From NCBI GenBank assembly GCA_041490525.1, contig JBGPTH010000015.1, positions 3,867 to 67,866 of the forward strand: a stretch of DNA of 64,000 bases, given 5' to 3'. Positions 28,495-48,988 of this stretch are shown here, piece after piece. The first letter of the stretch is position 1; every line of letters begins with the position of its first letter. Made by a program: the position numbers and the translations under genes. Under the pieces are notes generated by a model. It saw only the letters and a list, made by a program, of their open reading frames with translations, was not told the DNA's origin and made no database searches. Source of the DNA: Nitrospiria bacterium (GTDB lineage Bacteria > Nitrospirota > Nitrospiria > Nitrospirales > NS-4).

Positions 28495-29123
28495 GCCTTC
28501 TTCCTGGCCCCGTCCGTCGCCAGCGCCCGGGTGATGGCCTCTTTGGCGCCGACGATCACCGGATCGCCGTGGTGGGGACACAGAGTTTCGAAGCTCAGGC
28601 TGAGCAGGCGACGGACGCTCTCGCGGGTGCGCGCGGGCTCGTCCTGGTACTCGTCAGGGACGAAGGCCAGACCCTCGGCGCCGGCGTTCGTGAGCAGATC
28701 CGCGCAGAACACCGCGCCTCCCTCACGCTCCAGATAAAAGGCGTAGTGCGCGTCGGTCGGGCCGGGCGCATGCACGGCCACGAGGTTCCCTGGCAGGCGG
28801 TCGCCCGCGCGGTACCAGCGGTCCGGCGTCTCCTCGAAATCCACGCCGCCGTGCGGCGCGTGCACCAGGACGTGAAAGGCTCGGCGGTAGCGCCAGGCGG
28901 ACCGCTCATGGCAGGAGGCCGTCAGGCAGATGGCCTCGACGGGGCCGAGGGCTTTGAGGTCTGCGTCGGCCATGGGCAGGGGGTCGATCAGGATGGCCTT
29001 GCCGGTGTCCACCACCACATAGCTGTCGCTTTCAAAGTCGATCCGGTCGTCATGGATTGTGAAGCGATAGACGCCCGGAAGGACTTCCCCGACGAGCGTT
29101 GCGGTGCCGCCTGGCTCAGGCAT
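28491..29123 (-). CDS. metallo-beta-lactamase-fold protein with a degenerate HxHxDH motif
   Basis: 210 aa from ATG 29123, 8 nt downstream of the PepM-fusion stop. The motif order is MBL-like (VHAPGPTDAH, FCADLL, CPHHG), but motif 2 reads LTASCHERS. Confidence 0.6.
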   Translation of the reverse strand: MPEPGGTATLVGEVLPGVYRFTIHDDRIDFESDSYVVVDTGKAILIDPLPMADADLKALGPVEAICLTASCHERSAWRYRRAFHVLVHAPHGGVDFEETPDRWYRAGDRLPGNLVAVHAPGPTDAHYAFYLEREGGAVFCADLLTNAGAEGLAFVPDEYQDEPARTRESVRRLLSLSFETLCPHHGDPVIVGAKEAITRALATDGARKKA

Positions 29124-29131
29124 GATCCCCT

Positions 29132-30802
29132 CTATTTCTTCAATTCCGCCCAGGCCTGCTGGTAGTCCTCGAAAGTGTCCACCTCCATCCACCCCTTGTA
29201 GATGGTGAGGCAGGAGACCGTGTGTCCCTGGTCTACCAGCTCCTGGAGCATGTCGGTGAGGGAGGCTTTGGCGAGGGAGGCGGCTTCATGGAAAGGACGG
29301 TCGGAAGTACCGGCCGCTTTCTTGTAAGCGGCCTTCAGAATGTCGGTTCCCCGCTCCGACAGCATGGCCAGGCCGATGAACTCGCCGTGCGCCTGGTCCG
29401 GGTCCAGGTGCTGGCCGATCTTGATGAGCCGGGCCGGGCCTTCCGGCGGGACGAACCGGTAGCGGGCTTCCGGGGGATGGTCCATGAGCACGAGGTCCGG
29501 CTTCGCGTGCGGACGCGGCAGTCCGTGCCGGTGGTGATCTGCCCAGGCCTGGTCCACCACGACCGTGATGTCGGCGGGGCTCTTGAGGAGCTTCAATAAG
29601 ATTCCGGTCTCGAAGATGATGTCGGCGTAGAGCAGCAGGCAGCGGCCCTTCAGCTCGTTCTCGGCGCAGAAGATCGAGGCCAGGTCCCCGGTCTCCTCAT
29701 AGCGGTCGTTGTCGTAGTAGCGAAGGTTGGGAAGCGCGATCTTGTCTTTCTGATATCCCCTGATGACGGCGATGTCCTTGATGTGGACCTCGTTCAGGGT
29801 TGTCACCTGACGTTCCAGGATCGTCCGGCCCTTGATGTCCAGCAGGCATTTGGGTTTGTCCTGGATGAGCGGCATCAGTTGTTTCTCAAACCCGGCCGCC
29901 GGAATGATGGCCGTGATTTTCTCGGCCCCCACCGGGAGGAACTTGCGTTCGTCCTCCTCCAGCTTGGTGACCCCGACCAGGTCATAGACCTCCTGGAGGG
30001 ACACCATCCGGTCCGCCACCGCCTCGGCGCGGGTTTCGCGCTTCAGCACGTCCAGGGTGTCGCGCATGGCCTTGATGGCTGTCCGAATGACCTGGTTGGC
30101 GAAGATGACGATCTTGAAGCCGTGTTGCTCGAGCTCCTCCGCCCTCACCGAGCTGAAGATGGTGGGGACGACGACCAGCGGGACCCGGCCGGACCACTGC
30201 CGGGCGACGGCGCGGAGCTCCTCGAACGTGGGCGCTTTCGAGTGGATCAGGACGGCGTCAGCGCCGGCGTCGGCATAGGCTTCGGCCCGCTTCAACGCCT
30301 CGTCCTGGCCCCAGCCCGCGATCAGCGCCTCGGTTCGGGCGATCACCACGAAGTCCGGAGAGGACTGCGCCGCCTTGGCCGCGCGGACCTTGCCGGCGTG
30401 CTCCTCGACGGACACCAGCTCGCGGCGGACTCCCGCGTAGAACGAGCACCGCTTGGGGAAGACGTTGTCCTCGATGCAGATGCCGGCGATGCCGGCCTTC
30501 TCATAGTCCTGGACCGTCCGCATGACGTTCAGGGCGTTCCCGAACCCGGTGTCGCAATCGGCGATGACCGGAAGGGCGACCGCCTCCACGATGTTCCGGG
30601 TCACGTCGAGCTGTTCCGTCATCGTGAGGAAGCTGCCGTCGGGGATGCACTTGAGCGAGGCCGAGATGCCGAACCCGGAGGCCCAGATCGCGTCGAACCC
30701 GGCCCGCTCGATGAGCTTCGCGCTGAGCGCGTCGTGAGCGCCGACCGTGCGGATGAGCCCCGGCCGGTTCATCAGCTCGCGAAGTCTTGTTGCGTGGCGC
30801 AT
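29132..30802 (-). CDS. PEP-mutase-family (ICL/PEPM superfamily) domain fused to a C-terminal nucleotidyltransferase-like domain
   Basis: 556 aa. The N-terminal ~290 aa carry ADCDTGFG, ARTEA and AGADAVLIHSK (PepM-like), with the active-site loop EDNVFPKRCS. The C-terminal ~255 aa are NTP-transferase-like (AIIPAAGFEKQL...DKPKCLL...YADIIF). Confidence 0.8.
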   Translation of the reverse strand: MRHATRLRELMNRPGLIRTVGAHDALSAKLIERAGFDAIWASGFGISASLKCIPDGSFLTMTEQLDVTRNIVEAVALPVIADCDTGFGNALNVMRTVQDYEKAGIAGICIEDNVFPKRCSFYAGVRRELVSVEEHAGKVRAAKAAQSSPDFVVIARTEALIAGWGQDEALKRAEAYADAGADAVLIHSKAPTFEELRAVARQWSGRVPLVVVPTIFSSVRAEELEQHGFKIVIFANQVIRTAIKAMRDTLDVLKRETRAEAVADRMVSLQEVYDLVGVTKLEEDERKFLPVGAEKITAIIPAAGFEKQLMPLIQDKPKCLLDIKGRTILERQVTTLNEVHIKDIAVIRGYQKDKIALPNLRYYDNDRYEETGDLASIFCAENELKGRCLLLYADIIFETGILLKLLKSPADITVVVDQAWADHHRHGLPRPHAKPDLVLMDHPPEARYRFVPPEGPARLIKIGQHLDPDQAHGEFIGLAMLSERGTDILKAAYKKAAGTSDRPFHEAASLAKASLTDMLQELVDQGHTVSCLTIYKGWMEVDTFEDYQQAWAELKK

Positions 30803-30900: not shown

Positions 30901-31650
30901 ATGGCGGACAGGGCGGCTCTGGGCAAGGTTGCGGTGATCACCGGCGGGGCGAAGGGGATCGGCCGCGCCATCGGCGTGGACCTCGCTGCGAGCGGCTGGA
31001 ACGTGGCCTTCTGCTACAGGACCTCCGAGCGCGAGGCCGCCGAGACGGCGGCGTTCATCAAGAACCACGGGCGGCGCGTGCTGGCCGAGCGGTGCGATGT
31101 CTCGGATCCGGCCGCGGCTGAGGCCTTCGTCCGGAAGGTGGAAAAAGAATTCGGCGCGGTGGACGCCCTCATCAACTGCGCAGGCCCCTACCATCGGGTC
31201 AATGTCCTGGAGGAGACCCCCGCCGGGTGGACCGACATGTTCGCCCACAACCTGCACCCTGTCTTTTACATGAGCAAGGCCGTCTCGGCGGGCATGAAGG
31301 CGTGCAAGTGGGGGCGGATCGTGACCTTCTCGATGGCCAACGCCGACCAGATGGTGGCTCAACCCGAGGTGACCGCTCATTACATCGCCAAGGCGGGGGT
31401 CCTGATCCTGACCCGCACGCTGGCGAAGACGCTGGCCCCACACGGCATCACGGTCAATGCGATCTCCCCGGGCTTCATCAACTCGGGGAGCGCGCCGGAG
31501 GCGGAACTCGCCGCCATGGTGAAAAAAATTCCGGCGGGCTACGTCGGCGAGCCGCGCGATGCCGTGGCGGCGGTCCGGTTCCTCTTGTCCGACGAGGCGC
31601 GGTACGTGACCGGCACGAACATACACCTCAGCGGCGGGTGGGGGATCTGA
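30901..31650 (+). CDS. short-chain dehydrogenase/reductase (FabG-like)
   Basis: 249 aa with TGGAKGIG and YxxxK (HYIAKAG). Confidence 0.85.
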   Translation: MADRAALGKVAVITGGAKGIGRAIGVDLAASGWNVAFCYRTSEREAAETAAFIKNHGRRVLAERCDVSDPAAAEAFVRKVEKEFGAVDALINCAGPYHRVNVLEETPAGWTDMFAHNLHPVFYMSKAVSAGMKACKWGRIVTFSMANADQMVAQPEVTAHYIAKAGVLILTRTLAKTLAPHGITVNAISPGFINSGSAPEAELAAMVKKIPAGYVGEPRDAVAAVRFLLSDEARYVTGTNIHLSGGWGI

Positions 31651-34052: not shown

Positions 34053-34748
34053 TCAGTCGAGGACGGGGTTCAAGTTGAAGGCCACGCTGATGCGAGGGGC
34101 CGTGCCGTGGTAGGTGCTGACCGCGTGCGAGAGCCACCCGGGAAACAGCACGCACCGGCCGGTGACCGGGGTGATCGAGATGCTCTTGCCGGCGTCGTGC
34201 AGCTCGGGCATCGCGTACCGCAGATAGGGCGCGAGCATCGAGGGGAGGCATCCCCGGGGATCAAAGAGCTGCAAGTCCCCGCCGCACCCGCCCTGGGCGG
34301 GGATGTCGCCCGCATCCACATAGTACACACCCGACCAGAAGGAGCCGGGGTGGGGGTGGACGGCGTTGCTTCCCCCCTTCCGCTGCACGTTCGCCCAGGT
34401 CTCGATGACCTGCCAACGCGGCTTGGACCCGGTCAGATCGGGCGCCCGTTCGGAGAATTCCGTCGCTTGGGTCGCGACTTCCACGACGGGCGTTAACAGA
34501 TCTTTGACCACCGGAGCCCAGTCCAGCATGGACAGGTCGTGGGGGGAGGACCAGCCCACCACTTCGTGGTCGAGGACGGCCGGGGTCGTCACCTCCCGCT
34601 CGAGGATCGCGGCCCGGAGGTCTTTGTCGATCCGCGCGTGGTCGGGGATCATGAACACGAGCAGCGGAGTGGCGAAGAGCGGCCGGACGTTGATTTCCAT
34701 TTCCTGGGACATGGCTGGCAGGATATCGTCAGGGTCGGGAGGTGTCAA
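34053..34748 (-). CDS. putative 2OG-Fe(II)-oxygenase-like protein (TIGR02466/2OG-FeII_Oxy_5 type)
   Basis: 231 aa with NAVHPHPGSFWSGVYYV and GRCVLFPGWLSHAV...RISVAFN. The start could instead be the internal Met at 34712. Confidence 0.68.
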   Translation of the reverse strand: MTPPDPDDILPAMSQEMEINVRPLFATPLLVFMIPDHARIDKDLRAAILEREVTTPAVLDHEVVGWSSPHDLSMLDWAPVVKDLLTPVVEVATQATEFSERAPDLTGSKPRWQVIETWANVQRKGGSNAVHPHPGSFWSGVYYVDAGDIPAQGGCGGDLQLFDPRGCLPSMLAPYLRYAMPELHDAGKSISITPVTGRCVLFPGWLSHAVSTYHGTAPRISVAFNLNPVLD

Positions 34749-34765: not shown

Positions 34766-34795
34766 TTGAGAAGCCCGCCCGCCTCCTTATATAAT
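34766..34795 (+). promoter_or_regulatory. sigma70-like promoter candidate for the phosphonate operon (TTGAGA-18-TATAAT)
   Basis: TTGAGA at 34766-34771 and TATAAT at 34790-34795, with only 9 nt between the -10 and ATG 34805. The -35 is bracketed by the inverted repeat GGGCGGGC (34754-34761) / GCCCGCCC (34773-34780). Confidence 0.4.
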
Positions 34796-34804: not shown

Positions 34805-35293
34805 ATGTCGATTCCCGCCAAGGACTTCGTCGGCCTGTTGCAGGAAGCCGGGTTCGACTTCTTCACGGGCGTCCCGGATTCGATGCTGGGGGGCGTCATC
34901 GCCACGCTGATCGAGCGGCGGGTCTATGTCCCGGCGGCCCGGGAGGACGAGGCGGCGGGGATGGCCGCAGGGGCTTTTATGGGGGGGAAGACACCGGTCG
35001 TCCTGATGCAGAACTCCGGTCTCGGCACCTCCCTGAACACCCTGATCTCGCTGAACCTGATCTACCTCCAGCCGTGCCTGCTCCTGATCTCCTGGCGGGG
35101 CCAGGGCGGAAAAGACGCCGCGGAACATCTGGTCATGGGCCAGGTCATGCGGGAGTTGCTGGATCTGGTCCGCATTCCTCACCGGACGCTCGGGGTGGAA
35201 ACCCTCCGCGAGGACGTTGGGTGGGCGGCGCAGGTCTTCATGACGCGGCGCATTCCGGCGGCCTTGCTCATCACCAAGGGGGTCCTGGCGTGA
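34805..35293 (+). CDS. phosphonopyruvate-decarboxylase-type TPP enzyme, alpha (N-terminal PYR) subunit
   Basis: 162 aa from ATG 34805. FVGLLQEAGFDFFTGVPDSML...AAREDEAAGMAAGA...MQNSGLG is typical of the Ppd/ComD N-terminal domain. Confidence 0.8.
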   Translation: MSIPAKDFVGLLQEAGFDFFTGVPDSMLGGVIATLIERRVYVPAAREDEAAGMAAGAFMGGKTPVVLMQNSGLGTSLNTLISLNLIYLQPCLLLISWRGQGGKDAAEHLVMGQVMRELLDLVRIPHRTLGVETLREDVGWAAQVFMTRRIPAALLITKGVLA

Positions 35294-35883
35294 GGCCGGA
35301 AGAGGGAGTCCTGACCAGCCGCAGCCGGGCGATCGGGGCCGTCCTGGCCCTGCTGACCGACGAGCTGGTTATTGTCTGTAATGGATTTCCCTCACGTGAG
35401 GCCTACGCCCTGCGCGACCGGCCTGAGAATTTTTACATGATCGGCTCCATGGGGGTCGCGGCGGCGATCGGGTTGGGCCTGGCCCTGGCCCAGCCGCGCC
35501 GCAGGGTGGTGGTCTTCGACGGCGACGGCAACGTGTTGATGGGCCTGGGAACCCTGGCCACCGTCGGGGCCCTGAAGCCCAAGAATTTCGTTCACATCGT
35601 GTATGATAATGAGGTCTACGGTAGCACCGGGAACCAGCCGACGATCTCCCAGACCGTGCGCCTGGAGCAGATGGCCAAAGCCGCGGGGTATCGGAACGTG
35701 GAACGCGTGCGGGAACTGGACGATCTCGTGTATGAAGCCAAAACCATGCTGAAGGAGGATGGCCCCAGTTTCCTGCTGGTGAAGGTGTCTGAACTGGCAG
35801 AGGACGTGGGACGGGTGGAGATCGAGCCGGCGGCCATGACGACCCGATTCAGGGCGGCCGCCATGGGAGGGACGCCGACGTGA
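35290..35883 (+). CDS. phosphonopyruvate-decarboxylase-type TPP enzyme, beta (C-terminal PP) subunit
   Basis: 197 aa from GTG 35290 (GTGA overlap). GSMGVAAAIGLG...DGDGNVLMGLG...NEVYGSTGNQ is the TPP-binding motif region. Confidence 0.8.
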   Translation: MRPEEGVLTSRSRAIGAVLALLTDELVIVCNGFPSREAYALRDRPENFYMIGSMGVAAAIGLGLALAQPRRRVVVFDGDGNVLMGLGTLATVGALKPKNFVHIVYDNEVYGSTGNQPTISQTVRLEQMAKAAGYRNVERVRELDDLVYEAKTMLKEDGPSFLLVKVSELAEDVGRVEIEPAAMTTRFRAAAMGGTPT

Positions 35884-37148
35884 TCTTATTGAATCCGGGT
35901 CCGGTCAACGTATCCGAGCGCGTGCGCCAGGCCCTGCTCCGGCCGGACATCTGCCACCGCGAATCCGAGTTCGTCGAGCTGATCCAGAGCATCCGCGAAA
36001 AGCTGGTCCGAGCGTTCGCTCCGGGCGGGGAGTATCTCGCTCTCGTCCTGACGGGATCGGGAACGGCGGCGGTGGAAGCCGCGGTGACCTCGTCCCTGGC
36101 GCCTGGGCGCCGGTTGCTGGTCGTCAAGAACGGGGTCTATTCCCAACGGATCGTGGAGATGGCCGGCGCGCACAAAATCCATACGGCGGAGATTCCCGGC
36201 GAGTGGGACCAGCGCTTTGATGTCGAACAAGTGGCGGTCTCGCTGCGGCAGAACCAATCGATCCAGGTCGTGGCGGCGGTCCACCATGAGACCTCCACCG
36301 GCATGATCAACTCGATCAAAGAGATCGGGGCGGTCGTCAAGAAGGCCGGGCGCGTGCTCCTGGTGGACGGCGTGAGCAGCCTCGCCGGCGAGGACCTCGA
36401 CTTCACTGCCTGCAACGTGGGATTGATGGTCGGCTCGTCGGGCAAGTGCATCCAGGGATTCCCCGGAGTCGGGTTCGTGCTGGTCCGCCGCGATCTCATG
36501 GAACAGATGGCGAACTACACGCAGCGCTCCGTCTACCTGCATCTTCCCACCTATTACAAGGAGCAGGAAGAGGGCTCGATCCCGTTCACCCCCGCGGTCC
36601 AGCTCTACTATGCCTTCGATGAGGCCCTGAGCGAGCTGTTGGAAGAGGGGGTGGCCAACCGGATCGCGCGGTACCGGAAGATGGCCCGGACGATCCGGAA
36701 CTGGATGCGGACCATCCGGATGAAGTTCTACCTCCGCGAACCGTTCCTGTCGAGCACGCTCACGGCGTTGAGGCTCCCCGAGGGGGTGTATTACGATCAC
36801 CTGCACGACCTCCTGCGCGAGCGGGGCTACGTCGTATACGCCGGCCAATCCAATCTGGCGGCAAGCATTTTCCGCGTAGCCAACATGGGCGCCCTGACTG
36901 AGGCCGACATCAATGGATTCCTGACCGCCTTCGAAGAAATCCTGCCGGAAGCCCAGAAGCTCGGTGCCGAACGGGCCGGGGAAATGGAACAACTGCAGCG
37001 CGAGCGTAAGGATAAGGAGGAACTGGAGAAGGCCGAGGCGAAGGCGGCGGAAGAGGCGGCGAAGGCCGAGGAAGAGGCCAGGAAAGCGGAAGCGGAGGCG
37101 AAGACGGCCGAGGCCGCGGCCAAGCTCGAGGTCAAGACCGGCACTTGA
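35880..37148 (+). CDS. class-V aminotransferase, 2-aminoethylphosphonate:pyruvate transaminase-like, with a charged Ala/Glu/Lys tail
   Basis: 422 aa, GTG start overlapping the upstream stop (GTGA). The N-terminus reads LLNPGPVNVSERV...HRESEF...LTGSGTAAVEA. The last ~55 aa are EAK-rich low complexity. Confidence 0.82.
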   Translation: MILLNPGPVNVSERVRQALLRPDICHRESEFVELIQSIREKLVRAFAPGGEYLALVLTGSGTAAVEAAVTSSLAPGRRLLVVKNGVYSQRIVEMAGAHKIHTAEIPGEWDQRFDVEQVAVSLRQNQSIQVVAAVHHETSTGMINSIKEIGAVVKKAGRVLLVDGVSSLAGEDLDFTACNVGLMVGSSGKCIQGFPGVGFVLVRRDLMEQMANYTQRSVYLHLPTYYKEQEEGSIPFTPAVQLYYAFDEALSELLEEGVANRIARYRKMARTIRNWMRTIRMKFYLREPFLSSTLTALRLPEGVYYDHLHDLLRERGYVVYAGQSNLAASIFRVANMGALTEADINGFLTAFEEILPEAQKLGAERAGEMEQLQRERKDKEELEKAEAKAAEEAAKAEEEARKAEAEAKTAEAAAKLEVKTGT

Positions 37149-37188
37149 CCATGGCCGGGCGTCTGCTGTCGCCACGGGCGGCGTCATC

Positions 37189-37911
37189 ATGAAGGCGATC
37201 ATCCTGGCAGCGGGGGTCGGCAAGCGGCTTGCCGCGGTGACCCGAGAGCGTCCCAAGTGCCTGGTCGAATTGGGCGGGCAGCCCCTCCTGATCCGCTATC
37301 TCAACGCGTTGCTGGAGGCCGGGGTCAAGCGCGCCGCGGTGGTGGTGGGCCACAAGCAGGAGATGATCCGGAGGACGGTCGGCGAGAGCTACCGTGGCCT
37401 GGCCGTCCAGTACGTGGTCAACGACCAGTACCGGAGAGGGAGCCTCTATTCGCTCTGGCTGGCGCGGGTCGCCTTCGACGATGATGTGCTCATCATGGAT
37501 GCCGACGTCCTGTGCCCGTCCTCCTTCGTGGCGCGCCTGATCCACTCGCCGCACCCGAATGCCCTGTTGATCGACGAGACCGTCCGCCAGCAGATGGAGG
37601 AACGCATGGCCATAATTGACGGAGACCGGGTGGTGGCGCTGACCAAGAAGATTCCTCAGGAGACGCCCGACCTTATGGGCGAGGGGGTGGGATTCCTCAA
37701 GGTCACCAGGGCGGATACCCGGTTCATGCTGGCCGTGATGGAACCCTACGTGACGAGGGGCGAGCTGGACATGGAATATGAGGATACGTGGGAGAGTTTC
37801 TTCCGTACGGTCTCCGTGGGCTATGAAAAGGTCGGAGGCCAGCCCTGGATTGAGATCGACTTTCCGGAGGACCTCGAGCGCGCCAAGCGGGAGATCGTTC
37901 CGAAATTGTGA
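37189..37911 (+). CDS. LicC/PntC-like cytidylyltransferase (nucleotidyltransferase)
   Basis: 240 aa from ATG 37189, with MKAIILAAGVGKRL...RPKCLVELGG. The track ORF 36964.. over-extends. Confidence 0.8.
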   Translation: MKAIILAAGVGKRLAAVTRERPKCLVELGGQPLLIRYLNALLEAGVKRAAVVVGHKQEMIRRTVGESYRGLAVQYVVNDQYRRGSLYSLWLARVAFDDDVLIMDADVLCPSSFVARLIHSPHPNALLIDETVRQQMEERMAIIDGDRVVALTKKIPQETPDLMGEGVGFLKVTRADTRFMLAVMEPYVTRGELDMEYEDTWESFFRTVSVGYEKVGGQPWIEIDFPEDLERAKREIVPKL

Positions 37912-37926
37912 AGATCCCCTCACCCT

Positions 37927-37951
37927 ACCCCTCTCCCCGGAGGGAAGAGGG
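37927..37951. repeat. intergenic GC-rich hairpin (REP-like)
   Basis: CCCCTCT-CCC cgga GGG-a-AGAGGGG lies between the cytidylyltransferase stop and the next start. Confidence 0.45.
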
Positions 37952-37974
37952 GAAAGAAGAGCCAGCGAGGAGGA

Positions 37975-38961
37975 ATGATGAGCATCCGCATGGACCAGAT
38001 CCAGCCGATCATTGACCGGGAGTACGACTATCTCGTGTCCGAACATCCGCACTGGAGCCTGACCAAGGGCGACCAGGACCTGGAGCTGGTGGCGCACGCG
38101 CTGCGGGTCCTGCTTCACATGAAGACCACTCCGCAGCATCTGGCCGAGTATCTCGCCCTGGTGGACTGCCAGCATGCGGATGGGGGCTGGGGCAAACTGT
38201 CGTCCGACAAGCAGAGCGCCGCGTGGGTGACGGCCTTCTGCGCGCTGATGCTCATTCGCGGGAATCTCCTGCTGAAACACCCCCGGATCGCCGAATCGGT
38301 CCGGAAGTGCGTCCGCTATTTTCTGGCGACCCAGAAGGAAGACGGGAAGTGGTCCGATTCCTCCTGGGCGGACCTGGACGCCGTCAGCCATCCCATGAGC
38401 TTCTTCGATGTGCTGCTGGCCGTGGGCAAGCACCTGGTCGATGAGGCGACGCTGGGAGAGGTCAGGGCGGCGTGGCGGAAGGGCATGCGGTTCATGCTCG
38501 ACCGGCAAGCGGCCGATGGGGGCTGGTACGATCCGGAGTTCCACCCGACCGGCGTGGAGATCACGGCGCACCTGATCCAGGACTCCATCGTGCCCGACCT
38601 GGTGCTGGAGAATGAGTTCAATGTGCGGGACTGCTGCCAGGGAGGGGTGAGGAGGCTGCTTGCGGTCCAGGCGGCCGACGGCTCCTGGGACGGTGAGAAC
38701 GTCGATCACACCATGGATTGCAGCCGGTCCCTCATGCTGGTCAGCAGCATCCTGGGGACGCGGTCGCAGTGCGATCCGGCAATCGAGCGCGGGCTTGCGT
38801 GGATTCTGAAACATAAGTGCGAACGGGGCTGGCCGGATTTTCCGGGGATGGACCCGAACCTCGAACGGACCTGCGACGGCCTCGATACGCTGCTCAAATA
38901 CAAGGCGTACAGCCAGCCGGTGACGACCGCCATCGTCAAGCTCTGGGGATACGCCCTGTGA
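37975..38961 (+). CDS. prenyltransferase / squalene-cyclase-repeat (alpha/alpha toroid) protein
   Basis: 328 aa with four Q-x2-DG(G/S)W-type repeats: QHADGGWGK, TQKEDGKWSD, RQAADGGWYD and VQAADGSWDG. Confidence 0.7.
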   Translation: MMSIRMDQIQPIIDREYDYLVSEHPHWSLTKGDQDLELVAHALRVLLHMKTTPQHLAEYLALVDCQHADGGWGKLSSDKQSAAWVTAFCALMLIRGNLLLKHPRIAESVRKCVRYFLATQKEDGKWSDSSWADLDAVSHPMSFFDVLLAVGKHLVDEATLGEVRAAWRKGMRFMLDRQAADGGWYDPEFHPTGVEITAHLIQDSIVPDLVLENEFNVRDCCQGGVRRLLAVQAADGSWDGENVDHTMDCSRSLMLVSSILGTRSQCDPAIERGLAWILKHKCERGWPDFPGMDPNLERTCDGLDTLLKYKAYSQPVTTAIVKLWGYAL

Positions 38962-39278
38962 CGTTCCTGGCCAAGGTCGCCGAGATTCCGGCCGGCGACC
39001 GCAAGCTCATCAAGGTGAACGGCGTCGACGTCGCGGTGTTTCACGTCGGGGACCGGTTCTATGCCCTCAATAACACCTGCCCTCACCGCCAGGGCCCGCT
39101 GATTCGGGGCACCCTCGAAGACTCGGCAGGGGGCGCGGGCTGCGCGATCCGCTGCCCGATGCACGGATGGAAGTTTGATCTTGAGACCGGCGACAGCCAC
39201 GGCCGTTCCGGTAACGCGACGGTGTATCCCGTCACGCAACGGGACGGGGAACTCTTCATCGAGATCGGCGGGGTCTGA
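38958..39278 (+). CDS. small Rieske [2Fe-2S] ferredoxin (NirD-type)
   Basis: 106 aa from GTG 38958 (GTGA overlap), with CPHRQGPL...CPMHGWKF. Confidence 0.8.
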   Translation: MTFLAKVAEIPAGDRKLIKVNGVDVAVFHVGDRFYALNNTCPHRQGPLIRGTLEDSAGGAGCAIRCPMHGWKFDLETGDSHGRSGNATVYPVTQRDGELFIEIGGV

Positions 39279-39284
39279 TCACCC

Positions 39285-40727
39285 ATGGACGCCTCACCCA
39301 TCGACAGCGCTTTGGTCCTGACCACGGGAGGGATCTTCGATCCGACGGGGGCCCCTTCTCCACCGAGCCCCCTGACGGTCGTGGGCGGCCTCTCTCTCCT
39401 GCAGCGGACCATCATGACCCTGCAGCGGGCGGGCATCACGCGGCTCGTGATGCTGGGAGGCGACAAGACGGAGGCGATGCAGCGCCAGCTTCAGGGAGAT
39501 CGCCGGATCCAGATTGAGGTGGGGTGGCTCCCGATCCGCGAATTCCCCCTGAGCGACCCGCGGACCTGGGAAGGCCTCTCCGGCATGCTCGGCTCGTCCT
39601 ACCTCGTGGCGGGAACCAGGGCCGTTTTTTCCCCCGACCTGGTCATCCGCTTGCGTGAAGAGGGCAGGAAGGGGGATCCGGTCTTGGTCGTACGGAACGC
39701 GGACTCCGGCAGAACGAGGCGAGACTCCCTTTCCCCGGGCCGGCAGGATCTGCCGTCCCACTCCGGGGTGCCCATGGCTCCTCAAGGCGTCAAGGGCCAT
39801 GGGAGAGGGGAGAGCGAAGGGGCCGGCGGTGTGGTCACCCTGGAGCCCGCCGTGGCCTCCAGCCTGTTTGTTGACCTCGTGTCGATACCGGAAGGGTTCA
39901 CCTCCCCGGGTTGGGTCAATCCCCAAGACTCCCCTCACCCGCTGCGGACGGCCCTCGAACGCGGGCTCCGTTCGGGACAGGTGAAGGTCTTGCCGCTGGA
40001 GGCGGATTGGTACCAGGAGGTGCGGACGGGGGCGCCTGAAGAGGTGGCGTCGGCGGAATGGACCTTGCTTCGGTCCCTCAAAGGCGGTCTCGAAGGCTTC
40101 GTGGACCGCCATTTCAACCGCAAGTGTTCGAAGTGGATCACGCAGTGGCTGGTGGGGACTCCCTTGACCCCGAACGGCGTGACCATTCTGGCCACCGCGG
40201 TGGGTCTCCTGGCCGCCACCGCCTTCGGGCTCGGCGGATACGCGGAGGGGATCATTGGGGCCCTTCTGTTTCAGCTCTCCGCCATTCTGGATTGCTGTGA
40301 CGGCGAGGTAGCCCGGCTCAAATTCCTGGAATCGTCCATGGGGGAGCAATTGGACGTCGTACTGGATAACGTGGTCCACGTCGCCCTCTACGCTGGGATC
40401 GCGTGGGCCTCGTACCGGGACAATTGGGGCCCGGTGGCCCTGCTCTTCGGGTGGCTGGCGATGCTCGGCAATCTCTTTGCGTTCGTCGTGGTCCAGAAAG
40501 CAACCAGGATGCGGGGGGCGCTGGATCCGGACCGCCGGCGCTATGTGGAGTCGATCCTCAACACCCTGGTCAGCCGCGACTTCTCGGTGCTCATCCTGGT
40601 CTTAGCTCTCGTCAATCATGTCGAATGGTTTCTTCCGCTCGCGGCCATCGGCTCGAATGTCTTCTGGCCCCTGCTGGCCTGGCAGCTCCGGACGGAAAAG
40701 CGATCCGCCAGCCCTCCCATAACATGA
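39285..40727 (+). CDS. nucleotidyltransferase-like domain fused to a CDP-alcohol phosphatidyltransferase membrane domain
   Basis: 480 aa. The N-terminal NT-like fold has a degenerate Gly loop (LVLTTGGIFDPTG). A low-complexity linker follows. The C-terminal part carries DCCDGEVARLKFLESSMGEQLDVVLDNVVH plus TM helices. Confidence 0.7.
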   Translation: MDASPIDSALVLTTGGIFDPTGAPSPPSPLTVVGGLSLLQRTIMTLQRAGITRLVMLGGDKTEAMQRQLQGDRRIQIEVGWLPIREFPLSDPRTWEGLSGMLGSSYLVAGTRAVFSPDLVIRLREEGRKGDPVLVVRNADSGRTRRDSLSPGRQDLPSHSGVPMAPQGVKGHGRGESEGAGGVVTLEPAVASSLFVDLVSIPEGFTSPGWVNPQDSPHPLRTALERGLRSGQVKVLPLEADWYQEVRTGAPEEVASAEWTLLRSLKGGLEGFVDRHFNRKCSKWITQWLVGTPLTPNGVTILATAVGLLAATAFGLGGYAEGIIGALLFQLSAILDCCDGEVARLKFLESSMGEQLDVVLDNVVHVALYAGIAWASYRDNWGPVALLFGWLAMLGNLFAFVVVQKATRMRGALDPDRRRYVESILNTLVSRDFSVLILVLALVNHVEWFLPLAAIGSNVFWPLLAWQLRTEKRSASPPIT

Positions 40728-41725
40728 CCCGACTGACGGGCCTCCTTTTCGCGCTCGGGGTGGCGGTCCTTGTGGGCCTCGTGGTTCACATCGGTCCGGG
40801 CACGCTGGCGGCGGAACTCCACAAGCTGGGCCTGAATTTTCTCTGGATCATGCTCCCCTCGTTGGGCGTCTATCTGCTGGACGCCCTGGGCTGGCGCTAT
40901 ACGCTGGACCGGCACGCGGAACGGGTCCCGTTCGGCCGTCTCTTCATGACCCGCATGGCCGGCGAAGCCGTCAACTTCACCACCCCGGCGGCGTACTTGG
41001 GGGGCGAACCGGTGAAGGCCTACATGCTGAGCCGGTACAACGTCCCCTTGGTGGACGGCCTGGCCTCGGTGATCACGGCAAAGACGACGATGATCCTCGC
41101 CGAGGTCCTGTTCATCCTGGTCGGGGTGGGGCTCAGCGCGACGCTCCTGAGCCGGTCGGGCGATGTGCTGATGGCCGGCCTGGTCGGCTTCGGGGTGTTG
41201 GGGTTCGGGATCGGTCTATTCGTCTTCGTCCAGCGACAAGGGTTGTTCGGGGGAGTGCTCCGCTTACTCGAGCGCCTCGGAATCAGGATCGCGTGGCTGA
41301 AGGAACGGGAGTCCACGCTCCAGGTGCTGGATGAGGCGATCGGGGATTTCTATAAGCGGGACCATCGCCGGTTTTTTCTCTCCTTCCTGGCGTTCTTCGG
41401 GGGATGGGTGGTGGGAACCTTCGAAGTGTACCTGACGTTGTATTTCCTGGAGTTGCCGGTGGATGTGCTGACCGCCGTCGCGATCGAGGCCCTCGCCGTG
41501 TTCATCAAGGGGGCCACGGCGTTCATTCCCGGGAGCGTCGGCGGCCAGGAGGCGGGGATCGTCTTGCTGTGCGCGGCCTTCGGATTTCCCCAGGCGGGCG
41601 CCGTGACGTTCGCCCTGGTGCGGCGGGTCCGGGAGATCATCTGGGTCGCGTTCGGCTTGCTTGCCCTGACCGCGCAGAGTCCCGCTTCTTTCCCCGACGA
41701 TGCGCCGGGCCGCCCGCTGGAGTGA
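40724..41725 (+). CDS. flippase-like / lysyl-PG-synthase-TM-region (UPF0104, HpnL-like) membrane protein
   Basis: 333 aa from ATG 40724 (ATGA overlap), polytopic, with LDALGWRYTL...RMAGEAVNFTTPAAYLGGEPVKAY. Confidence 0.68.
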   Translation: MTRLTGLLFALGVAVLVGLVVHIGPGTLAAELHKLGLNFLWIMLPSLGVYLLDALGWRYTLDRHAERVPFGRLFMTRMAGEAVNFTTPAAYLGGEPVKAYMLSRYNVPLVDGLASVITAKTTMILAEVLFILVGVGLSATLLSRSGDVLMAGLVGFGVLGFGIGLFVFVQRQGLFGGVLRLLERLGIRIAWLKERESTLQVLDEAIGDFYKRDHRRFFLSFLAFFGGWVVGTFEVYLTLYFLELPVDVLTAVAIEALAVFIKGATAFIPGSVGGQEAGIVLLCAAFGFPQAGAVTFALVRRVREIIWVAFGLLALTAQSPASFPDDAPGRPLE

Positions 41726-41782: not shown

Positions 41783-43756
41783 ATGAAGGGCATTGCCGCT
41801 GTGGGTTGGGCCGCGCTGGCGGCGCTCTGCGCCGGGGCCTTCGGCGTTGTCACCGGGATCTTCAACCCCGAGGAGAAGGTCAACGCCCTGTGGCTCGTCG
41901 TCGCCGCGACCTGCTTCTATGTGCTGGCCTACCGGTTTTACGGGCGGTTTCTGGCCAGGCGCGTGCTGGAGTTGGACGACCGCCGGGTGACGCCGGCGCA
42001 CCGCCTCCCCGACGGCGCCAATTTCATTCCTACCAACCGCTGGGTGCTGTTCGGGCATCACTTTGCGGCGATCGCCGGCGCGGGGCCGCTGCTGGGCCCG
42101 GTGCTGGCGGCGCAGTTCGGGTTTCTCCCGGGCTTTCTCTGGCTGGTAATCGGCGCGGTGCTGGCCGGCGCGGTGCAGGACTTCGTGATCCTCGTGGCTT
42201 CGATGCGGCGCAACGGCCGGTCGCTGCCGCAGATCGCCCGGGATGAAATCGGGACGGTGACCGGCACGGCGACGGCGGTCGCGGTCCTCTTTATCGTGGT
42301 GGTGGCCCTGGCCGGCCTCGGCCTGGCCGTCGTGAACGCTCTCTATCACAACCCCTGGGGCACCTTCACGCTCGCCGTGACGATCCCGATCGCCTTCCTG
42401 ATGGGGTTCTACCTCCAACGCTGGCGGCCGGGTCAGGTAGGGGAGATGTCGGCGGTCGGCGTGATTCTGTTGGTCGCCGCGGTCTTGGCCGGGCATGGGG
42501 TCGCGCACTCGTCTCTCGCGCCGTTCTTCGATTTCGAGCGGGCCACGCTGGTTTGGCTGCTGGCGGCCTACGGATTCCTGGCGTCGGTCTTGCCGGTCTG
42601 GATGCTGCTGGTGCCGCGCGATTATCTGTCGAGCTTCATGAAGGTCAGCGTGGTGGCCTTGCTGGGCGTCGGCGTGGTGCTCATGGCCCCGACCATCGAG
42701 ATGCCCCGGGTCACGGCCTTCATCTCGGGAGGCGGGCCGGTCATTCCGGGGCCGATCTTCCCCTTCGTCTTCATCACGATCGCCTGCGGGGCGATCTCGG
42801 GTTTCCACTCGCTGGTGGCCTCCGGCACGACGCCCAAGATGATCGATCGGGAATCGCACGCGATGATCGGGTACGGGGCGATGCTGATGGAGAGCTTCGT
42901 GGGCGTCATCGCGCTGGTCGCCGCCTCGATCCTGATGCCCGGCGACTACTTCGCGATCAACACGAAGCTGTCGGCCGACGCGCTGGGGGCGCTCGGCTAC
43001 CCGGTGGACCACATCCGGGAGCTGTCCCGCCTGGTGGAACAGGAGGTCATGGGCCGGCCCGGGGGCGCTGTCTCGCTGGCGGTGGGGATGGCTTCGATCT
43101 TCTCAGCCTTGCCGGGCCTCTCGGCCATCCCGGGTCTGATGGCCTACTGGTATCAGTTCGCTCTGCTCTTCGAGGCCTTGTTCATCCTCACGACCATCGA
43201 TGCGGGGACGCGGGTGGCGCGCTACCTTGTGCAGGAGATGGGGGGGATCCTCTATGCGCCCCTCCGGACGATCACCTGGGCGCCGGGCGTGATCGCGGCC
43301 AGCCTGGCGGTGGTGGGAAGCTGGGGCTATCTGCTCGCCACGGGGACGGTCGCCACCATCTGGCCCATGTTCGGGGCGGCGAACCAACTGCTCGGCATGC
43401 TGGCCCTGTGCGTCGGGACCACCGTGCTCATCAAGATGGGCAAGGCGCCCTACCTATGGGTCACGGCGGTCCCGATGGTGTTTGTGGGGGTCATCACGCT
43501 GTCCGGCTCCTTCGAGCTGTTCGTGTTCTTTTCCCGGAAGGCCGCGGCCGCGGCCGGAAAGGACTCCGTTCCCTTTTACCTGGACGCCGCGTTGGTCGGA
43601 GTGGTGGCGTCGCTGGCGGTGGTGATCCTGGGGGACTCGGTCGCCAAGTGGTACGGGTATCTGATCCAGAAGAAACCCATCACGACCAGCGAGGTCGCAG
43701 CAGACGTCGGGGGCGATCAGGGGGGGATCAAGATCCCGGCCGGGCCCTGCTGCTGA
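41783..43756 (+). CDS. cstA: carbon starvation protein A (peptide/pyruvate transporter family)
   Basis: 657 aa with YRFYGRFLARRVLELDD...NRWVLFGHHFAAIAGAGPLLGPVLAAQFG. Confidence 0.93.
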   Translation: MKGIAAVGWAALAALCAGAFGVVTGIFNPEEKVNALWLVVAATCFYVLAYRFYGRFLARRVLELDDRRVTPAHRLPDGANFIPTNRWVLFGHHFAAIAGAGPLLGPVLAAQFGFLPGFLWLVIGAVLAGAVQDFVILVASMRRNGRSLPQIARDEIGTVTGTATAVAVLFIVVVALAGLGLAVVNALYHNPWGTFTLAVTIPIAFLMGFYLQRWRPGQVGEMSAVGVILLVAAVLAGHGVAHSSLAPFFDFERATLVWLLAAYGFLASVLPVWMLLVPRDYLSSFMKVSVVALLGVGVVLMAPTIEMPRVTAFISGGGPVIPGPIFPFVFITIACGAISGFHSLVASGTTPKMIDRESHAMIGYGAMLMESFVGVIALVAASILMPGDYFAINTKLSADALGALGYPVDHIRELSRLVEQEVMGRPGGAVSLAVGMASIFSALPGLSAIPGLMAYWYQFALLFEALFILTTIDAGTRVARYLVQEMGGILYAPLRTITWAPGVIAASLAVVGSWGYLLATGTVATIWPMFGAANQLLGMLALCVGTTVLIKMGKAPYLWVTAVPMVFVGVITLSGSFELFVFFSRKAAAAAGKDSVPFYLDAALVGVVASLAVVILGDSVAKWYGYLIQKKPITTSEVAADVGGDQGGIKIPAGPCC

Positions 43757-46503: not shown

Positions 46504-47667
46504 GTGAAGACTCTGCTCGAGTGGCTGTGTCTCGTGCCCGCGATCGGAGGGTCGGTGTATGCGGTCCTGTGTCTGCTCGCGGTCATTCGCCTCCGGAGGC
46601 GCCCCGCACGCTCCCTGCGCTATTCCTTTTCCTCCTGGCCGCCGGTCACCATTATGAAGCCGGTCTGCGGCCTGGAGAAAAACTTACGCGACAATCTGCG
46701 CAGCGTCTGTATCCAAGAGTATCCGGAGTTCCAGGTCGTGTTCTCGGTGCAGGACCCGGATGATCCCGCCCTCCCGCTCCTGAGAGAGGTCCAGAACGAA
46801 TTCGGGCCCGACAAAGTGTCCGTGGCCGTCGACGGGGCCCACACCGCCCCCAACGGCAAGATTAGGAACCTCTTGGGAGGCCTGCCCTATGCCCGGTACG
46901 ACGTCCTGGTGATCAGCGACAGCGACGTCCGGGTGGGGCCGGATTATCTGAAGACCATTGTCGGCCCTCTGGCGGATCCTGAGTTCGGGTGCGTGTGCAC
47001 GCTCTACAAGGCCACGGGCGCCGGGACCTGGTTCGAAAAGTTGGAGCTGCTGACCCTGAATGCCGATTTCATGACCAACGTGGTCTTCGCCCATTTCAGC
47101 GGGGCCTCGAAGTTCTGTCTGGGCGCCTCCACGGCGATCCTCCGGCCGAGCCTGAAAGAGATCGGCGGCCTGGAAGCCCTGGCAGATTATCTGGTGGAAG
47201 ACCACGAGATGGGCCGGCGCGTGTGGAAGTCCGGGAAGAAGATCGCCATCGTGCCGTACTTTGTGGAAACTACGGTGGACCTTAAGGACCCCTCCCAGTG
47301 GTGGAGCCATCAGGTCTATTGGGATCAAAACACGCGCGCGGCGCAGCCCTGGGGATTTTTCGCCACCGCGCTGATCCGTTCTGTTCCTTTCGCCCTGCTG
47401 TTCGCGGTGCTCCGGCTGGGAGACCCTATCGGGTGGGCGGTCCTGGGCGGAACCCTGGCGGTGCGCCTGTCCACCGCGGGAGTAATCCTAGGGTGGGGGT
47501 TTCGGGACCACGAGGGGCTCAGGAGTCTCTGGCTGCTGCCTCTTCGCGATCTCGCAGGTCTGGTCTCCTGGCTCCTGGCGTTCACGAAGCGGACGGTTAT
47601 CTGGCGGGGGGCGGAGTTCATCCTGACGCGGCAGGGAAGGATGGTCCCGCGCGACTCGAGGTCATGA
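46504..47667 (+). CDS. hpnI: glycosyltransferase, HpnI / ceramide-glucosyltransferase (GT21-like) family
   Basis: 387 aa with VTIMKPVCGLEKNL...DPDDPALPLL...NGKIRNL...ISDSDVRV...LVEDHEMG, followed by an hpnK-like gene with an ATGA overlap. Confidence 0.7.
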   Translation: MKTLLEWLCLVPAIGGSVYAVLCLLAVIRLRRRPARSLRYSFSSWPPVTIMKPVCGLEKNLRDNLRSVCIQEYPEFQVVFSVQDPDDPALPLLREVQNEFGPDKVSVAVDGAHTAPNGKIRNLLGGLPYARYDVLVISDSDVRVGPDYLKTIVGPLADPEFGCVCTLYKATGAGTWFEKLELLTLNADFMTNVVFAHFSGASKFCLGASTAILRPSLKEIGGLEALADYLVEDHEMGRRVWKSGKKIAIVPYFVETTVDLKDPSQWWSHQVYWDQNTRAAQPWGFFATALIRSVPFALLFAVLRLGDPIGWAVLGGTLAVRLSTAGVILGWGFRDHEGLRSLWLLPLRDLAGLVSWLLAFTKRTVIWRGAEFILTRQGRMVPRDSRS

Positions 47668-48515
47668 AAAAACTCATTGTCACTGGCGATGACTTTGGCC
47701 TGGCGGTCCCGGTCAACGAAGCGATCGAGGAAGCCCACCGGGGCGGGGTCCTGACGACCGCGAGCCTAATGGTGGGGGGGGGGGCCGCGGCGGACGCCGT
47801 GGAGCGAGCGAAGCGGCTGCCGTCGTTGAAGGTAGGCCTCCACGTGGTCCTAGTGGAAGGCCGCCCGGTCCTGCCGCCCGAGGCGGTTCCCGATCTGGTG
47901 GACAGCCGGGGGGAATTTTCCTCTCAATTGGTCCGGGCGGGGATCAAGTTCTTCTTCAGGCCGGGAGTGAGGCGCCAGTTGGAAGCGGAGATCAGGGCGC
48001 AGTTCCAGACCTTCCGGGACTTCGGGCTTCCGCTGGATCACGTCAATGGCCATAATCACATGCATCTGCACCCCACGGTTTTGGGGCTCATTTTGAAAGT
48101 GGGGCGGGACTTCGGGCTCAAAGCGGTCCGCTTGCCGTACGAGCCGCCCGTGCCCTCCTGGCGCGCGTCGCGGAGGGGACTCTCCCACAAGCTGATGGCG
48201 TGGCTGTTGTTGGCCCCCTGGGTGGCCGTCTTGAAATTTCGCCTCGGCCGCGCGCAGGTGCGGTCGAACGAGTTTGTGTTCGGCATGAACGACAGCGGGA
48301 GCATGCACCTGGAGCTCGTCCTGCGCATCCTCAAGCACCTCCCGCAGGGAGTGACGGAGATCTATTTCCATCCCGCCACTCGGCGGTGCCCCGAGATCGA
48401 GCGGTCCATGAAGGACTATGACCATGAACGCGAGTTCGAGGCCCTGATCAGTCCCGCAGTGCGGGAGGCGCTCCTGGCCTCCGGCGTGCAGAGGATTGCG
48501 TTCAGCGACCTGTAG
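47664..48515 (+). CDS. hpnK: YdjC/ChbG-family deacetylase, HpnK-like
   Basis: 283 aa from ATG 47664 with LIVTGDDFGLAVPVNEAI...LTTASLMV...VGLHVVLVEG...LDHVNGHNHMHLHP. Confidence 0.75.
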   Translation: MKKLIVTGDDFGLAVPVNEAIEEAHRGGVLTTASLMVGGGAAADAVERAKRLPSLKVGLHVVLVEGRPVLPPEAVPDLVDSRGEFSSQLVRAGIKFFFRPGVRRQLEAEIRAQFQTFRDFGLPLDHVNGHNHMHLHPTVLGLILKVGRDFGLKAVRLPYEPPVPSWRASRRGLSHKLMAWLLLAPWVAVLKFRLGRAQVRSNEFVFGMNDSGSMHLELVLRILKHLPQGVTEIYFHPATRRCPEIERSMKDYDHEREFEALISPAVREALLASGVQRIAFSDL

Positions 48516-48592
48516 GAGGGCTACGGGCTCATCCCGCTCTCGCCGATCGAGACCGCACGGCCGCTCCGATAACCGATATTGAGGAGGAGAGA

Positions 48593-48988
48593 ATGATTCG
48601 AGTACTGATCGCTATGACGATCGCCGCGGGCGCGGCCGCGATCGGCCAGATTCTGCTCCGGATCGGCATGCAGCAGGTCGGATCGTTGGAGCACTACGGC
48701 CCCGTGGCGCTGACGGCCTATTTCTGGCAGGCCTTGTGCAACCCCTACGTGATCGGGGGGACGATCCTCAACGCGGTGTTTTATTTCCTGTTCCTGGCGG
48801 CGCTGTCGTGGACGGACGTGACGGTGGTCCTGCCCATGACCGCGATCGAATACGGGTTCGCCGCGGTCTTGGCGGTCATGATTCTCAGCGAGGCGGTCCC
48901 GCCCATGCGCTGGGCCGGGATCGCGTTGGTGATCCTGGGCGTGATTTTGATCAGCATGGGCGGCGGCGAATCCCCGATTCAATCCTAG
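48593..48988 (+). CDS. small 4-TM EamA/DMT-type protein (ArnE/ArnF-like flippase subunit)
   Basis: 131 aa with four hydrophobic helices. GAGGAGG SD upstream. Confidence 0.65.
   Translation: MIRVLIAMTIAAGAAAIGQILLRIGMQQVGSLEHYGPVALTAYFWQALCNPYVIGGTILNAVFYFLFLAALSWTDVTVVLPMTAIEYGFAAVLAVMILSEAVPPMRWAGIALVILGVILISMGGGESPIQS

Follow-up and report, generated by a model that had tools for sequence, protein, structure and literature searches.

Decoration of the cell surface is the supposed function of around half of the phosphonate gene clusters in bacteria (PMC8942020). The commonest type is the Group 1 phosphonolipid cluster, also called 'Burkholderiales_CDP-OH' (Yu et al. 2013; Li & Horsman 2022, PMC8942020), the product of which was never characterised. 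Its core comprises a Ppm-PntC fusion (phosphoenolpyruvate (PEP) mutase and nucleotidyltransferase, PepM-NTP below), phosphonopyruvate decarboxylase (Ppd), 2-aminoethylphosphonate (AEP) transaminase (AEPT), a putative 2-oxoglutarate (2OG) oxygenase, a second PntC and two phospholipid-type genes (PMC8942020). We analysed 64,000 nucleotides of Nitrospiria bacterium DNA from contig JBGPTH010000015.1 (the window). The window shares the seven-gene core, all of which was identified between 29.1 and 41.7 kb. However, the published core lacks the following two genes, both of which the window has between PntC and the CDP-alcohol (CDP-OH) transferase gene.

37975..38961, + strand: toroid protein, 328 amino acids, member of a family specific to PEP mutase (PepM) clusters; single-domain alpha/alpha toroid with five QW-type repeats
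38958..39278, + strand: Rieske [2Fe-2S] ferredoxin, 106 amino acids, directly downstream of the toroid gene

The toroid and Rieske genes are a two-gene accessory cassette added to a complete phosphonate pathway. Because the pair is found almost only inside phosphonate gene clusters, its probable task is to modify the phosphonate and not to bind a terpene. We tentatively propose that the toroid is an accessory enzyme that tailors the phosphonate head group and receives electrons from the Rieske protein. A first-pass annotation of the window had noted the pair between the cytidylyltransferase and head-group transferase genes, and suggested either an isoprenoid or hopanoid acceptor or a new redox step. 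The pair is indeed a genuine and conserved part of the phosphonate operon, and a redox step stays the best reading of what it may do.

The toroid and Rieske genes are conserved together

Among 5.8 billion proteins, 341 relatives of the toroid were found at E ≤ 1e-3. Most are 321-334 amino acids long with 55-60% identity. HMMER, run exhaustively over 1.84 billion cluster representatives, returned 24 at E ≤ 1e-30, and a sharp gap in score separates the family from generic SQHop-repeat proteins. The toroids are a small, discrete family, of about 440 proteins among the 5.8 billion. The 120 best matches listed have identities of up to 98% and E values from 1e-221 to ~1e-118. Given these strong homologues, and a third-codon-position GC content of 0.86, the toroid and Rieske genes are real genes rather than chance open reading frames (ORFs). 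The relatives come from metagenome-assembled genomes (MAGs) of Nitrospirota, Binatia, Omnitrophota, 'Deltaproteobacteria' and Methylomirabilota. They are currently annotated as 'squalene cyclase', 'terpene cyclase/mutase family' or hypothetical. A tblastn search with two family members against 72,556 plasmids, made for a handle in cultured strains, gave no match.

We surveyed 80 toroid loci from species-representative genomes (L numbers below denote loci of this and other scans). A Rieske gene begins no more than 300 bp downstream of the toroid gene in 76 of the 78 testable loci. PepM, Ppd or AEPT was present within the fetched locus in 72 of 76 cases. The first-pass annotation had proposed counting such co-occurrence; the pair is clearly not found equally often away from phosphonate genes. 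At one locus, L059, which has the toroid (10001-11017) and Rieske genes, the flanking 10 kb on each side contain no phosphonate gene. At L077 and L081 the toroid gene is in a phosphonate operon with no detectable Rieske gene.

Three architectures recur among loci of clade 1, to which the window toroid belongs. Type A is that of Nitrospirales and includes the window operon. Type B, from Omnitrophota/'Planctomycetia', encodes DXS, squalene-hopene cyclase (SHC), HpnH, PpdA, PpdB, an aminotransferase, a CDP-OH transferase, an HpnL-like protein, HpnA, an HpnG-like protein, the toroid, the Rieske protein, a nucleotidyltransferase (NTP)/CDP-OH transferase, PepM-NTP (reverse strand) and IspH. Here, SHC, HpnH, HpnA and IspH score over their curated cut-offs, and the HpnG-like and HpnL-like proteins under theirs. 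In type C, from Binatia, PepM-NTP is followed by the toroid, the Rieske protein and then an extracytoplasmic function (ECF) sigma/zf-HC2 anti-sigma pair. Some Binatia loci run on into PpdA, PpdB, AEPT and NTP with overlapping genes and, at L076 and L082, the series extends to NTP/CDP-OH. For Binatia with the first three genes only, none of the best 120 matches in a PpdB search lay on the megabase-size contigs concerned.

Two further observations concern these loci. The ECF sigma and zf-HC2 anti-sigma genes follow the Rieske gene at L001, L005, L006 and L155, which hints at envelope-stress control of the Binatia-type cluster. Separately, merged hopanoid-phosphonate loci, in which AEP genes alternate with DXS, SHC, HpnH, HpnA, HpnG-like and IspH genes within a single same-strand cluster, occur in Omnitrophota/'Planctomycetia'-labelled MAGs (L003 (1-15663), L004, L024, L038, L042, L043, L049, L058, L061, L067, L069 and L073). 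This arrangement predicts an AEP-bearing hopanoid.

The cassette is optional and has relatives in other phosphonate clusters

To identify loci without the cassette, metagenome contigs were scanned with a PepM-NTP profile and operon genes were mapped onto the matches. At least 11 loci encode PpdA, PpdB, AEPT, NTP and NTP/CDP-OH without a toroid or Rieske gene, the NTP gene abutting that for NTP/CDP-OH; in most, an HpnL-like gene is next. At L140, the NTP gene abuts the CDP-OH transferase gene at precisely the site occupied by the cassette in the window. The cassette was present in eight other loci of the same scan. A PepM cluster adjoining SHC, L172, is also without it. An optional cassette fits a tailoring role better than it fits obligate partnership with PepM or an obligate function as adaptor to hopanoids.

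Distant relatives in clades 2 and 3 (33-43% identity) were compared at the six loci with usable longer contigs: L087, L088, L089, L093, L094 and L095. Two others, P0125 and P0134, were left out of this comparison, with contigs of ~1 kb. PepM is present at all six loci, and no Rieske or terpenoid gene was found at any of them. L087, L088 and L095 encode PepM, the toroid, a protein of ~374 amino acids, an HMGL-like protein resembling phosphonomethylmalate (PMM) synthase, large and small aconitase subunits and a methyltransferase. To this set, L089 adds amino-acid ligase, carrier protein and ATP-binding cassette exporter genes, and L093 adds nonribosomal peptide synthetase modules and a major facilitator superfamily exporter. 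L094 is an AEP/CDP-OH cluster with an iron-type alcohol dehydrogenase (Fe-ADH) and an inositol-monophosphatase-like gene. The distant relatives keep the motifs NH41xxR44, TAH199, D244-H-T-C-D248-x-x-R251 and T-C-D301-G-x-D304. Because these relatives are in PMM-type PepM clusters, the toroid family is tied to phosphonate chemistry as such and not to isoprenoids.

The ~374 amino acid protein encoded after the clade-2 toroid (L087:8952-10076, L095:10914-12035) has no Pfam match and a weak precomputed 'ScmC' match. Elsewhere in its cluster, L089 encodes a 342 amino acid ScmC-like protein and an unassigned protein of 379 amino acids. This is a recurrent uncharacterised member of PMM-type phosphonate clusters.

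The toroid lacks cyclase motifs and has a conserved polar face

The first-pass annotation took the 328 amino acid product to be a single toroid about half the size of SHC. This is borne out by an AlphaFold2 model built from a 20-sequence alignment, which confidently shows one alpha/alpha toroid with 12 main helices (mean predicted local distance difference test 92.8, predicted template-modelling score 0.90). The four QxxDG(G/S)W repeats claimed at the same time need a looser definition. The strict pattern occurs three times (Q66, Q178 and Q232), the fourth motif is of QxxDGxW type (QKEDGKW, Q120) and there is a degenerate fifth (KCERGW). Orthologues have 327 amino acids; hence, the second ATG (37978) may be the true start.

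Pfam SQHop_cyclase_C matches the toroid with 41.2 bits, passing its cut-off of 26.1. However, the full-length cyclase models fail: TIGR01507 scores 42.9 bits against a cut-off of 431.1 and TIGR01787 scores 46.9 against 322.7. The first-pass annotation had asked whether the active site was of DxDD or zinc type, and neither was found. The general-acid motif DxDD/DCTAE, sought as D.DD or DxD[DE][TS]A, occurs in 0 of 118 clade-1 sequences; an incidental D.DD is present in 2 of 84 sequences from clades 2 and 3. No Asp/Cys/His zinc triad of the prenyltransferase type could be demonstrated in the toroid, the operon has no prenyltransferase alpha-subunit-like gene and Pfam Prenyltrans scores 20 bits, under its cut-off of 26.5. 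TED_complement is barely over its cut-off (23.5 against 22 bits), and the CGEQ thioester motif that is the hallmark of such domains is not in the toroid sequence. Foldseek returned generic matches only (template-modelling (TM) score ~0.6, 15-18% identity), among them drimenyl-diphosphate synthase, monodomain cyclases (8paj and 8pak), TED domains of complement proteins and beta subunits of prenyltransferases.

We considered NVDHTMD (242-248) as the equivalent of the SHC catalytic motif DVDDTA and rejected it. HMMER aligns NVDHTMD to SHC positions 420-427 (DVDNTSD), in another repeat. Since the motif also recurs in each toroid repeat, we do not take it as the counterpart of DVDDTA.

In the 20-sequence alignment, 103 positions are invariant in clade 1; Asp accounts for 13 of these, His for 5, Arg for 4 and Cys for 3. 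Conserved polar residues recur at registers +1, +5, +8 and +12 of five model helices. These are the helices that follow each QW loop, and the residues lie on one face.

H2: E37 (+1), H41 (+5), R44 (+8), H48 (+12)
H6: S138 (+5); also D133 (0) and H139 (+6)
H8: E195 (+1), H199 (+5), Q202 (+8)
H10: D244 (+1), D248 (+5), R251 (+8)
H12: E297 (+1), D301 (+5), D304 (+8), K308 (+12)

In SHC-type toroids, the inner helices are those after the QW loops, and the active-site funnel is built from the N-terminal turns of these helices. By analogy, the corresponding helices of the window toroid would be inner. As read from the helix registers, the residues conserved on these presumed inner helices are charged or polar (His, Asp, Glu, Arg and Lys) and not aromatic. 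The +5 ring (H41, S138/H139, H199, D248 and D301) contains three His and two Asp and may be a metal site. The +8 ring (R44, Q202, R251 and D304), with two Arg, one Gln and one Asp, is a candidate phosphate or phosphonate site. Both assignments derive from the same registers. H41, R44, T197, D244, T246, D248, R251 and D301 are kept in all clades.

The Rieske partner resembles oxygenase ferredoxins

The Rieske gene has a GTG start at 38958, within CTGTGACG, giving a 4-nucleotide overlap with the toroid stop codon. The GTGA overlap noted in the first pass is hence confirmed. Its label of NirD-type fared less well. The protein is a Rieske protein of 106 amino acids (Pfam Rieske, 62 bits), but TIGR02378 (NirD) scores 61.5 bits, under its cut-off of 74.65, and HcaC scores equally well. 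No NirB gene is present in the window region. The ligand motif CPHR...CPMHGW (CxH...CxxH) is intact, and CPH...CPxH is kept in at least 90% of 83 orthologues. The closest solved structures are oxygenase-system ferredoxins: CarAc, BphF and the naphthalene dioxygenase (NDO) ferredoxin, from the carbazole, biphenyl and naphthalene dioxygenase systems. In agreement with the first reading of the operon, no Rieske-oxygenase alpha subunit was found in the scan of ORFs from 26.8 to 46.4 kb. A reductase is likewise absent from these ORFs, and neither component appears in the gene tables of related loci.

Organisation of the operon and its surroundings

The cassette is flanked by the stand-alone nucleotidyltransferase gene (37189-37911) and the NTP-like/CDP-OH transferase gene (39285-40727), which presumably encodes the head-group transferase. 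The remaining genes of the phosphonate region are as follows.

34805..35293, + strand: phosphonopyruvate decarboxylase alpha subunit (PpdA), first gene of the operon; TPP_enzyme_N
35290..35883, + strand: phosphonopyruvate decarboxylase beta subunit (PpdB); TPP_enzyme_C, 71 bits; 4-nucleotide overlaps on both sides
35880..37148, + strand: AEP transaminase; TIGR03301, 346 bits against a cut-off of 361
37189..37911, + strand: stand-alone nucleotidyltransferase, PntC-like; Pfam NTP_transf_3, 57 bits
39285..40727, + strand: fusion of an NTP-transferase-like domain and a CDP-alcohol phosphotransferase (IPCT/DIPPS-like); CDP-OH_P_transf, 39 bits; NF041135, 116 bits, below cut-off
40724..41725, + strand: HpnL-like, flippase-like membrane protein (LPG_synthase_TM); Pfam, 126 bits; TIGR03476, 186 bits against a cut-off of 196
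34053..34748, - strand: divergent 2OG-Fe(II) oxygenase-like gene; 2OG-FeII_Oxy_5/TIGR02466
29132..30802, - strand: PEP mutase-nucleotidyltransferase fusion (Ppm-PntC); PEP_mutase, 202 bits, and NTP_transf_3

The genes from 34805 to 41725 are on the same strand and tightly packed, with several junctions being 4-nucleotide overlaps; at the HpnL-like gene, the start overlaps the preceding stop codon (ATGA). A promoter-like site (34766-34795, 11/12 matches) precedes PpdA. In the gap between the NTP and toroid genes (~37915-37974), a potential hairpin is no more stable than shuffled sequence (z = -0.98). The divergent 2OG-type gene is the sole oxygenase-like gene, as first noted. Among the cassette-bearing and cassette-less loci compared, it is limited to those of Nitrospirales type. 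The AEP transaminase has a C-terminal tail of ~65 amino acids (36945-37148, + strand) that is rich in Glu, Ala and Lys, of low complexity (EAKAAEEAAKAEEEARKAEAEAK) and outside the TIGR03301 match.

Several neighbouring genes recur elsewhere. After the HpnL-like gene is a CstA gene (41783-43756, + strand) of the carbon-starvation/pyruvate-peptide transporter family. Homologues are present at other Nitrospirales loci and at four cassette-less loci of another lineage (together L009, L011, L013, L014, L016, L017, L083, L113, L132, L138 and L142), so CstA may belong to the conserved cluster. Directly downstream of PepM-NTP is a metallo-beta-lactamase-fold gene (28491-29192, - strand), and divergent from PepM-NTP is a short-chain dehydrogenase/reductase (SDR) gene (30901-31650, + strand). 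The former adjoins PepM again in the Nitrospirales-related loci L096-L110, most of which have SDR homologues; neither gene recurs in Omnitrophota-type loci.

Other lipid genes are further away. HpnI (337 bits, over cut-off) and HpnK (382 bits) are encoded 7.5 kb downstream, in a group at 46504-51088 (+ strand) that continues with a small EamA-like ORF and genes for a DegT-type aminotransferase and an NAD epimerase. The window contains no SHC, HpnH or HpnJ gene. A lipid/isoprenoid group lies ~13 kb upstream (21217-25466, - strand), with genes for a Caroten_synth-family membrane protein, a 240 amino acid ORF, an HpnA-like NAD epimerase, a polyprenyl synthetase and a second CDP-alcohol phosphatidyltransferase of 244 amino acids. 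At 53585-56000, an IS1595-family transposase borders a patch of low GC content (0.49 against ~0.65 elsewhere), which suggests a recent insertion.

Proposed role of the cassette

The core makes AEP, activates it as cytidine monophosphate (CMP)-AEP and transfers it to a membrane acceptor. In the mechanism that we tentatively favour, the cassette, placed between the genes for activation and transfer, would provide an extra redox step ahead of head-group transfer, most simply oxygenation of AEP or CMP-AEP. The toroid would be the substrate-binding and catalytic subunit. A metal and the anionic phosphonate (or CMP-phosphonate) could be held in its central channel, which the conserved rings of His, Asp and Arg would line. 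Docked on the toroid, the Rieske ferredoxin may then supply electrons. We favour redox tailoring because pairing is near-obligate, the ligands are intact across the 83 orthologues and the Rieske protein has affinities with oxygenase ferredoxins. The polar helix face, the operon position, the optional nature of the cassette and apparent replacement of a monooxygenase in clade 2 point the same way. If correct, a terpene-cyclase fold has been put to new use, paired with an iron-sulfur electron carrier.

Several points weigh against redox tailoring. Clades 2 and 3 have no Rieske gene; hence, redox chemistry is either not a necessity across the family or the electrons come from elsewhere. No reductase is encoded near the cassette, and we know of no redox enzyme built on the alpha/alpha-toroid fold. 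The carriers include Omnitrophota and Thermodesulfobacteriota, which are probably or often anaerobes, and this argues against an O2-dependent reaction. Finally, the literature assigns alpha-hydroxylation to the 2OG-type oxygenase, so the cassette reaction would have to be different or additional in the window. C1-hydroxylation of AEP, considered as the cassette reaction, is weakened since the window's 2OG oxygenase is usually given that role.

A bolder form of the proposal would make the toroid the catalytic part of a novel Rieske-ferredoxin-dependent metalloenzyme on a terpene-cyclase-like (alpha/alpha)6 scaffold. This would oxidise AEP or CMP-AEP and, in lineages where the cluster is fused with SHC, HpnH, HpnG-like and HpnA genes, the head group would pass to bacteriohopanepolyol. 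Taken whole, this is distinctly unlikely. If true, the product would be a phosphono-hopanoid, a lipid class never described.

The toroid could instead be a partner of PEP mutase without catalytic function: a scaffold, a regulator or a channel for phosphonopyruvate. The Rieske protein would then sense redox state or have a structural role. Such a partner would help to overcome the unfavourable equilibrium between PEP and phosphonopyruvate. The arrangement of Binatia-type loci is consistent with this: the toroid gene is 9-204 bp downstream of PepM-NTP and, with the Rieske gene, these form the entire local unit. The clade-2 toroid gene is also adjacent or nearly adjacent to PepM (L087, L088, L089 and L095), in a different pathway type where PEP and phosphonopyruvate are the sole shared intermediates. 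However, PepM-NTP proteins with 56-72% identity to that of the window occur in complete operons that lack the toroid (at least 11 loci). Furthermore, in the window and other Nitrospirales, the toroid gene is 7 kb from PepM, among late-pathway genes. The dense His, Asp and Arg residues on one face of five helices resemble a ligand or catalytic site, not a protein-protein surface, and a coupling enzyme (Ppd or PMM synthase) is already there. We consider a role as PEP mutase partner unlikely.

Recognition of an isoprenoid or hopanoid, as raised in the first pass, would have the toroid bind the acceptor and present it to the CDP-alcohol transferase, placing the AEP head group on a hopanoid. The fold is of SHC type with QW repeats, and hopanoid genes occur at 19 of the 80 toroid loci. 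In type B loci, HpnA and the HpnG-like gene immediately precede the pair, and the cluster also includes DXS, SHC, HpnH and IspH. The window operon includes an HpnL-like gene, with HpnI and HpnK nearby. Conversely, family members are found in PMM-type small-molecule clusters without terpenoid genes, and most clade-1 loci, including more than 40 of Binatia, are without a hopanoid gene in the surrounding 10 kb. L172, the PepM cluster next to SHC, has no toroid, the conserved residues presumed to line the channel are charged or polar, not aromatic, and the Rieske protein is left without a role. A hopanoid ligand for the toroid is therefore rather improbable. What survives is the link at the level of the operon, seen in Omnitrophota-type loci with SHC, HpnH, HpnA and HpnG-like genes.

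It is highly doubtful that the toroid is a soluble phosphonyl-transferase or hydrolase, binding the CMP-phosphonate leaving group in a prenyltransferase-like manner and passing the phosphonate to another acceptor. The gene does lie between those for the cytidylyltransferase and CDP-alcohol transferase, nucleotidyltransferase genes are present in most contexts of the family, and relatives by fold (drimenyl-diphosphate synthase, prenyltransferase beta) bind diphosphates via Arg, Lys, His and Mg2+. However, the obligate Rieske partner of clade 1 is left unexplained, L093 has no nucleotidyltransferase and a membrane CDP-OH transferase is already encoded. A monodomain class II terpene cyclase like MstE, which the size and fold class shared with 8paj, 8pak and MstE would allow, can be set aside as exceedingly improbable: DxDD/DCTAE is absent from all 118 clade-1 sequences, TM scores are ~0.6 at 15-18% identity, TIGR01507 gives ~43 bits against 431 and most loci have no prenyl-diphosphate synthase or terpenoid genes.

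Comparison with known systems

Our literature search found no description of the toroid family and no paper with both Rieske and phosphoenolpyruvate mutase. Nothing relevant was found on bacteriohopane with phosphon-, or on PEP mutase with squalene or terpene cyclase. No phosphono-hopanoid was described in the papers found, including those mentioning both hopanoid and aminoethylphosphonate. The term 'phosphonoterpene' in the papers found is an antiSMASH-based guess from gene adjacency, made for Nitrosococcus and Acetobacteraceae only. The interleaved phosphonate and hopanoid side-chain loci lead to a prediction for lipid geochemistry, namely an AEP-bearing bacteriohopanepolyol in Omnitrophota, Nitrospirales and Binatia. 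Our analysis also corrects a systematic mis-annotation, in which these toroids are named 'squalene cyclase' or 'terpene cyclase/mutase family protein'.

SHC and the monodomain cyclases (MstE, 8paj and 8pak) have the alpha/alpha toroid and QW repeats in common with the window toroid. SHC has two domains (beta-gamma) and ~630 amino acids, whereas the window toroid has one domain, as do the monodomain exceptions, and 328 amino acids. The window toroid differs from all of these cyclases in having no DxDD motif, polar conserved residues, a PepM context and a Rieske partner. The beta subunits of farnesyltransferase and geranylgeranyltransferase are, like the window toroid, single toroids, of ~330 amino acids (Foldseek TM ~0.6). 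Unlike them, the window toroid has no partner alpha gene, and its Prenyltrans score is below cut-off.

The window Rieske protein has the size (~105 amino acids) and CxH...CxxH ligands of CarAc, BphF, the NDO ferredoxin and TodB. In contrast to the multicomponent oxygenases, its operon has no alpha subunit or reductase gene, and its constant partner is the toroid. An analogy, and only that, is offered by CMP-N-acetylneuraminate hydroxylase, in which a CMP-activated head group is hydroxylated before transfer in a reaction that depends on a Rieske centre. In that enzyme, the Rieske domain is fused and the catalytic domain is unrelated to the toroid, with no sequence relationship.

The closest parallel for the clade-2 toroid clusters is the pantaphos HiVir cluster, with which they share PepM, PMM synthase, a two-subunit dehydratase and a methyltransferase (PMC7858074). 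HiVir uses the flavin monooxygenase HvrB and the reductase HvrK (PMC7858074). The clade-2 clusters have neither, and the toroid stands in the place of HvrB in the gene set. The only known habitat of the toroid family is PEP mutase clusters, of at least three architectures, which makes it a specific and testable candidate for new phosphonate chemistry. The fold is known, the toroid has none of the catalytic hallmarks that define the known families with this fold, and the context and partner are new.

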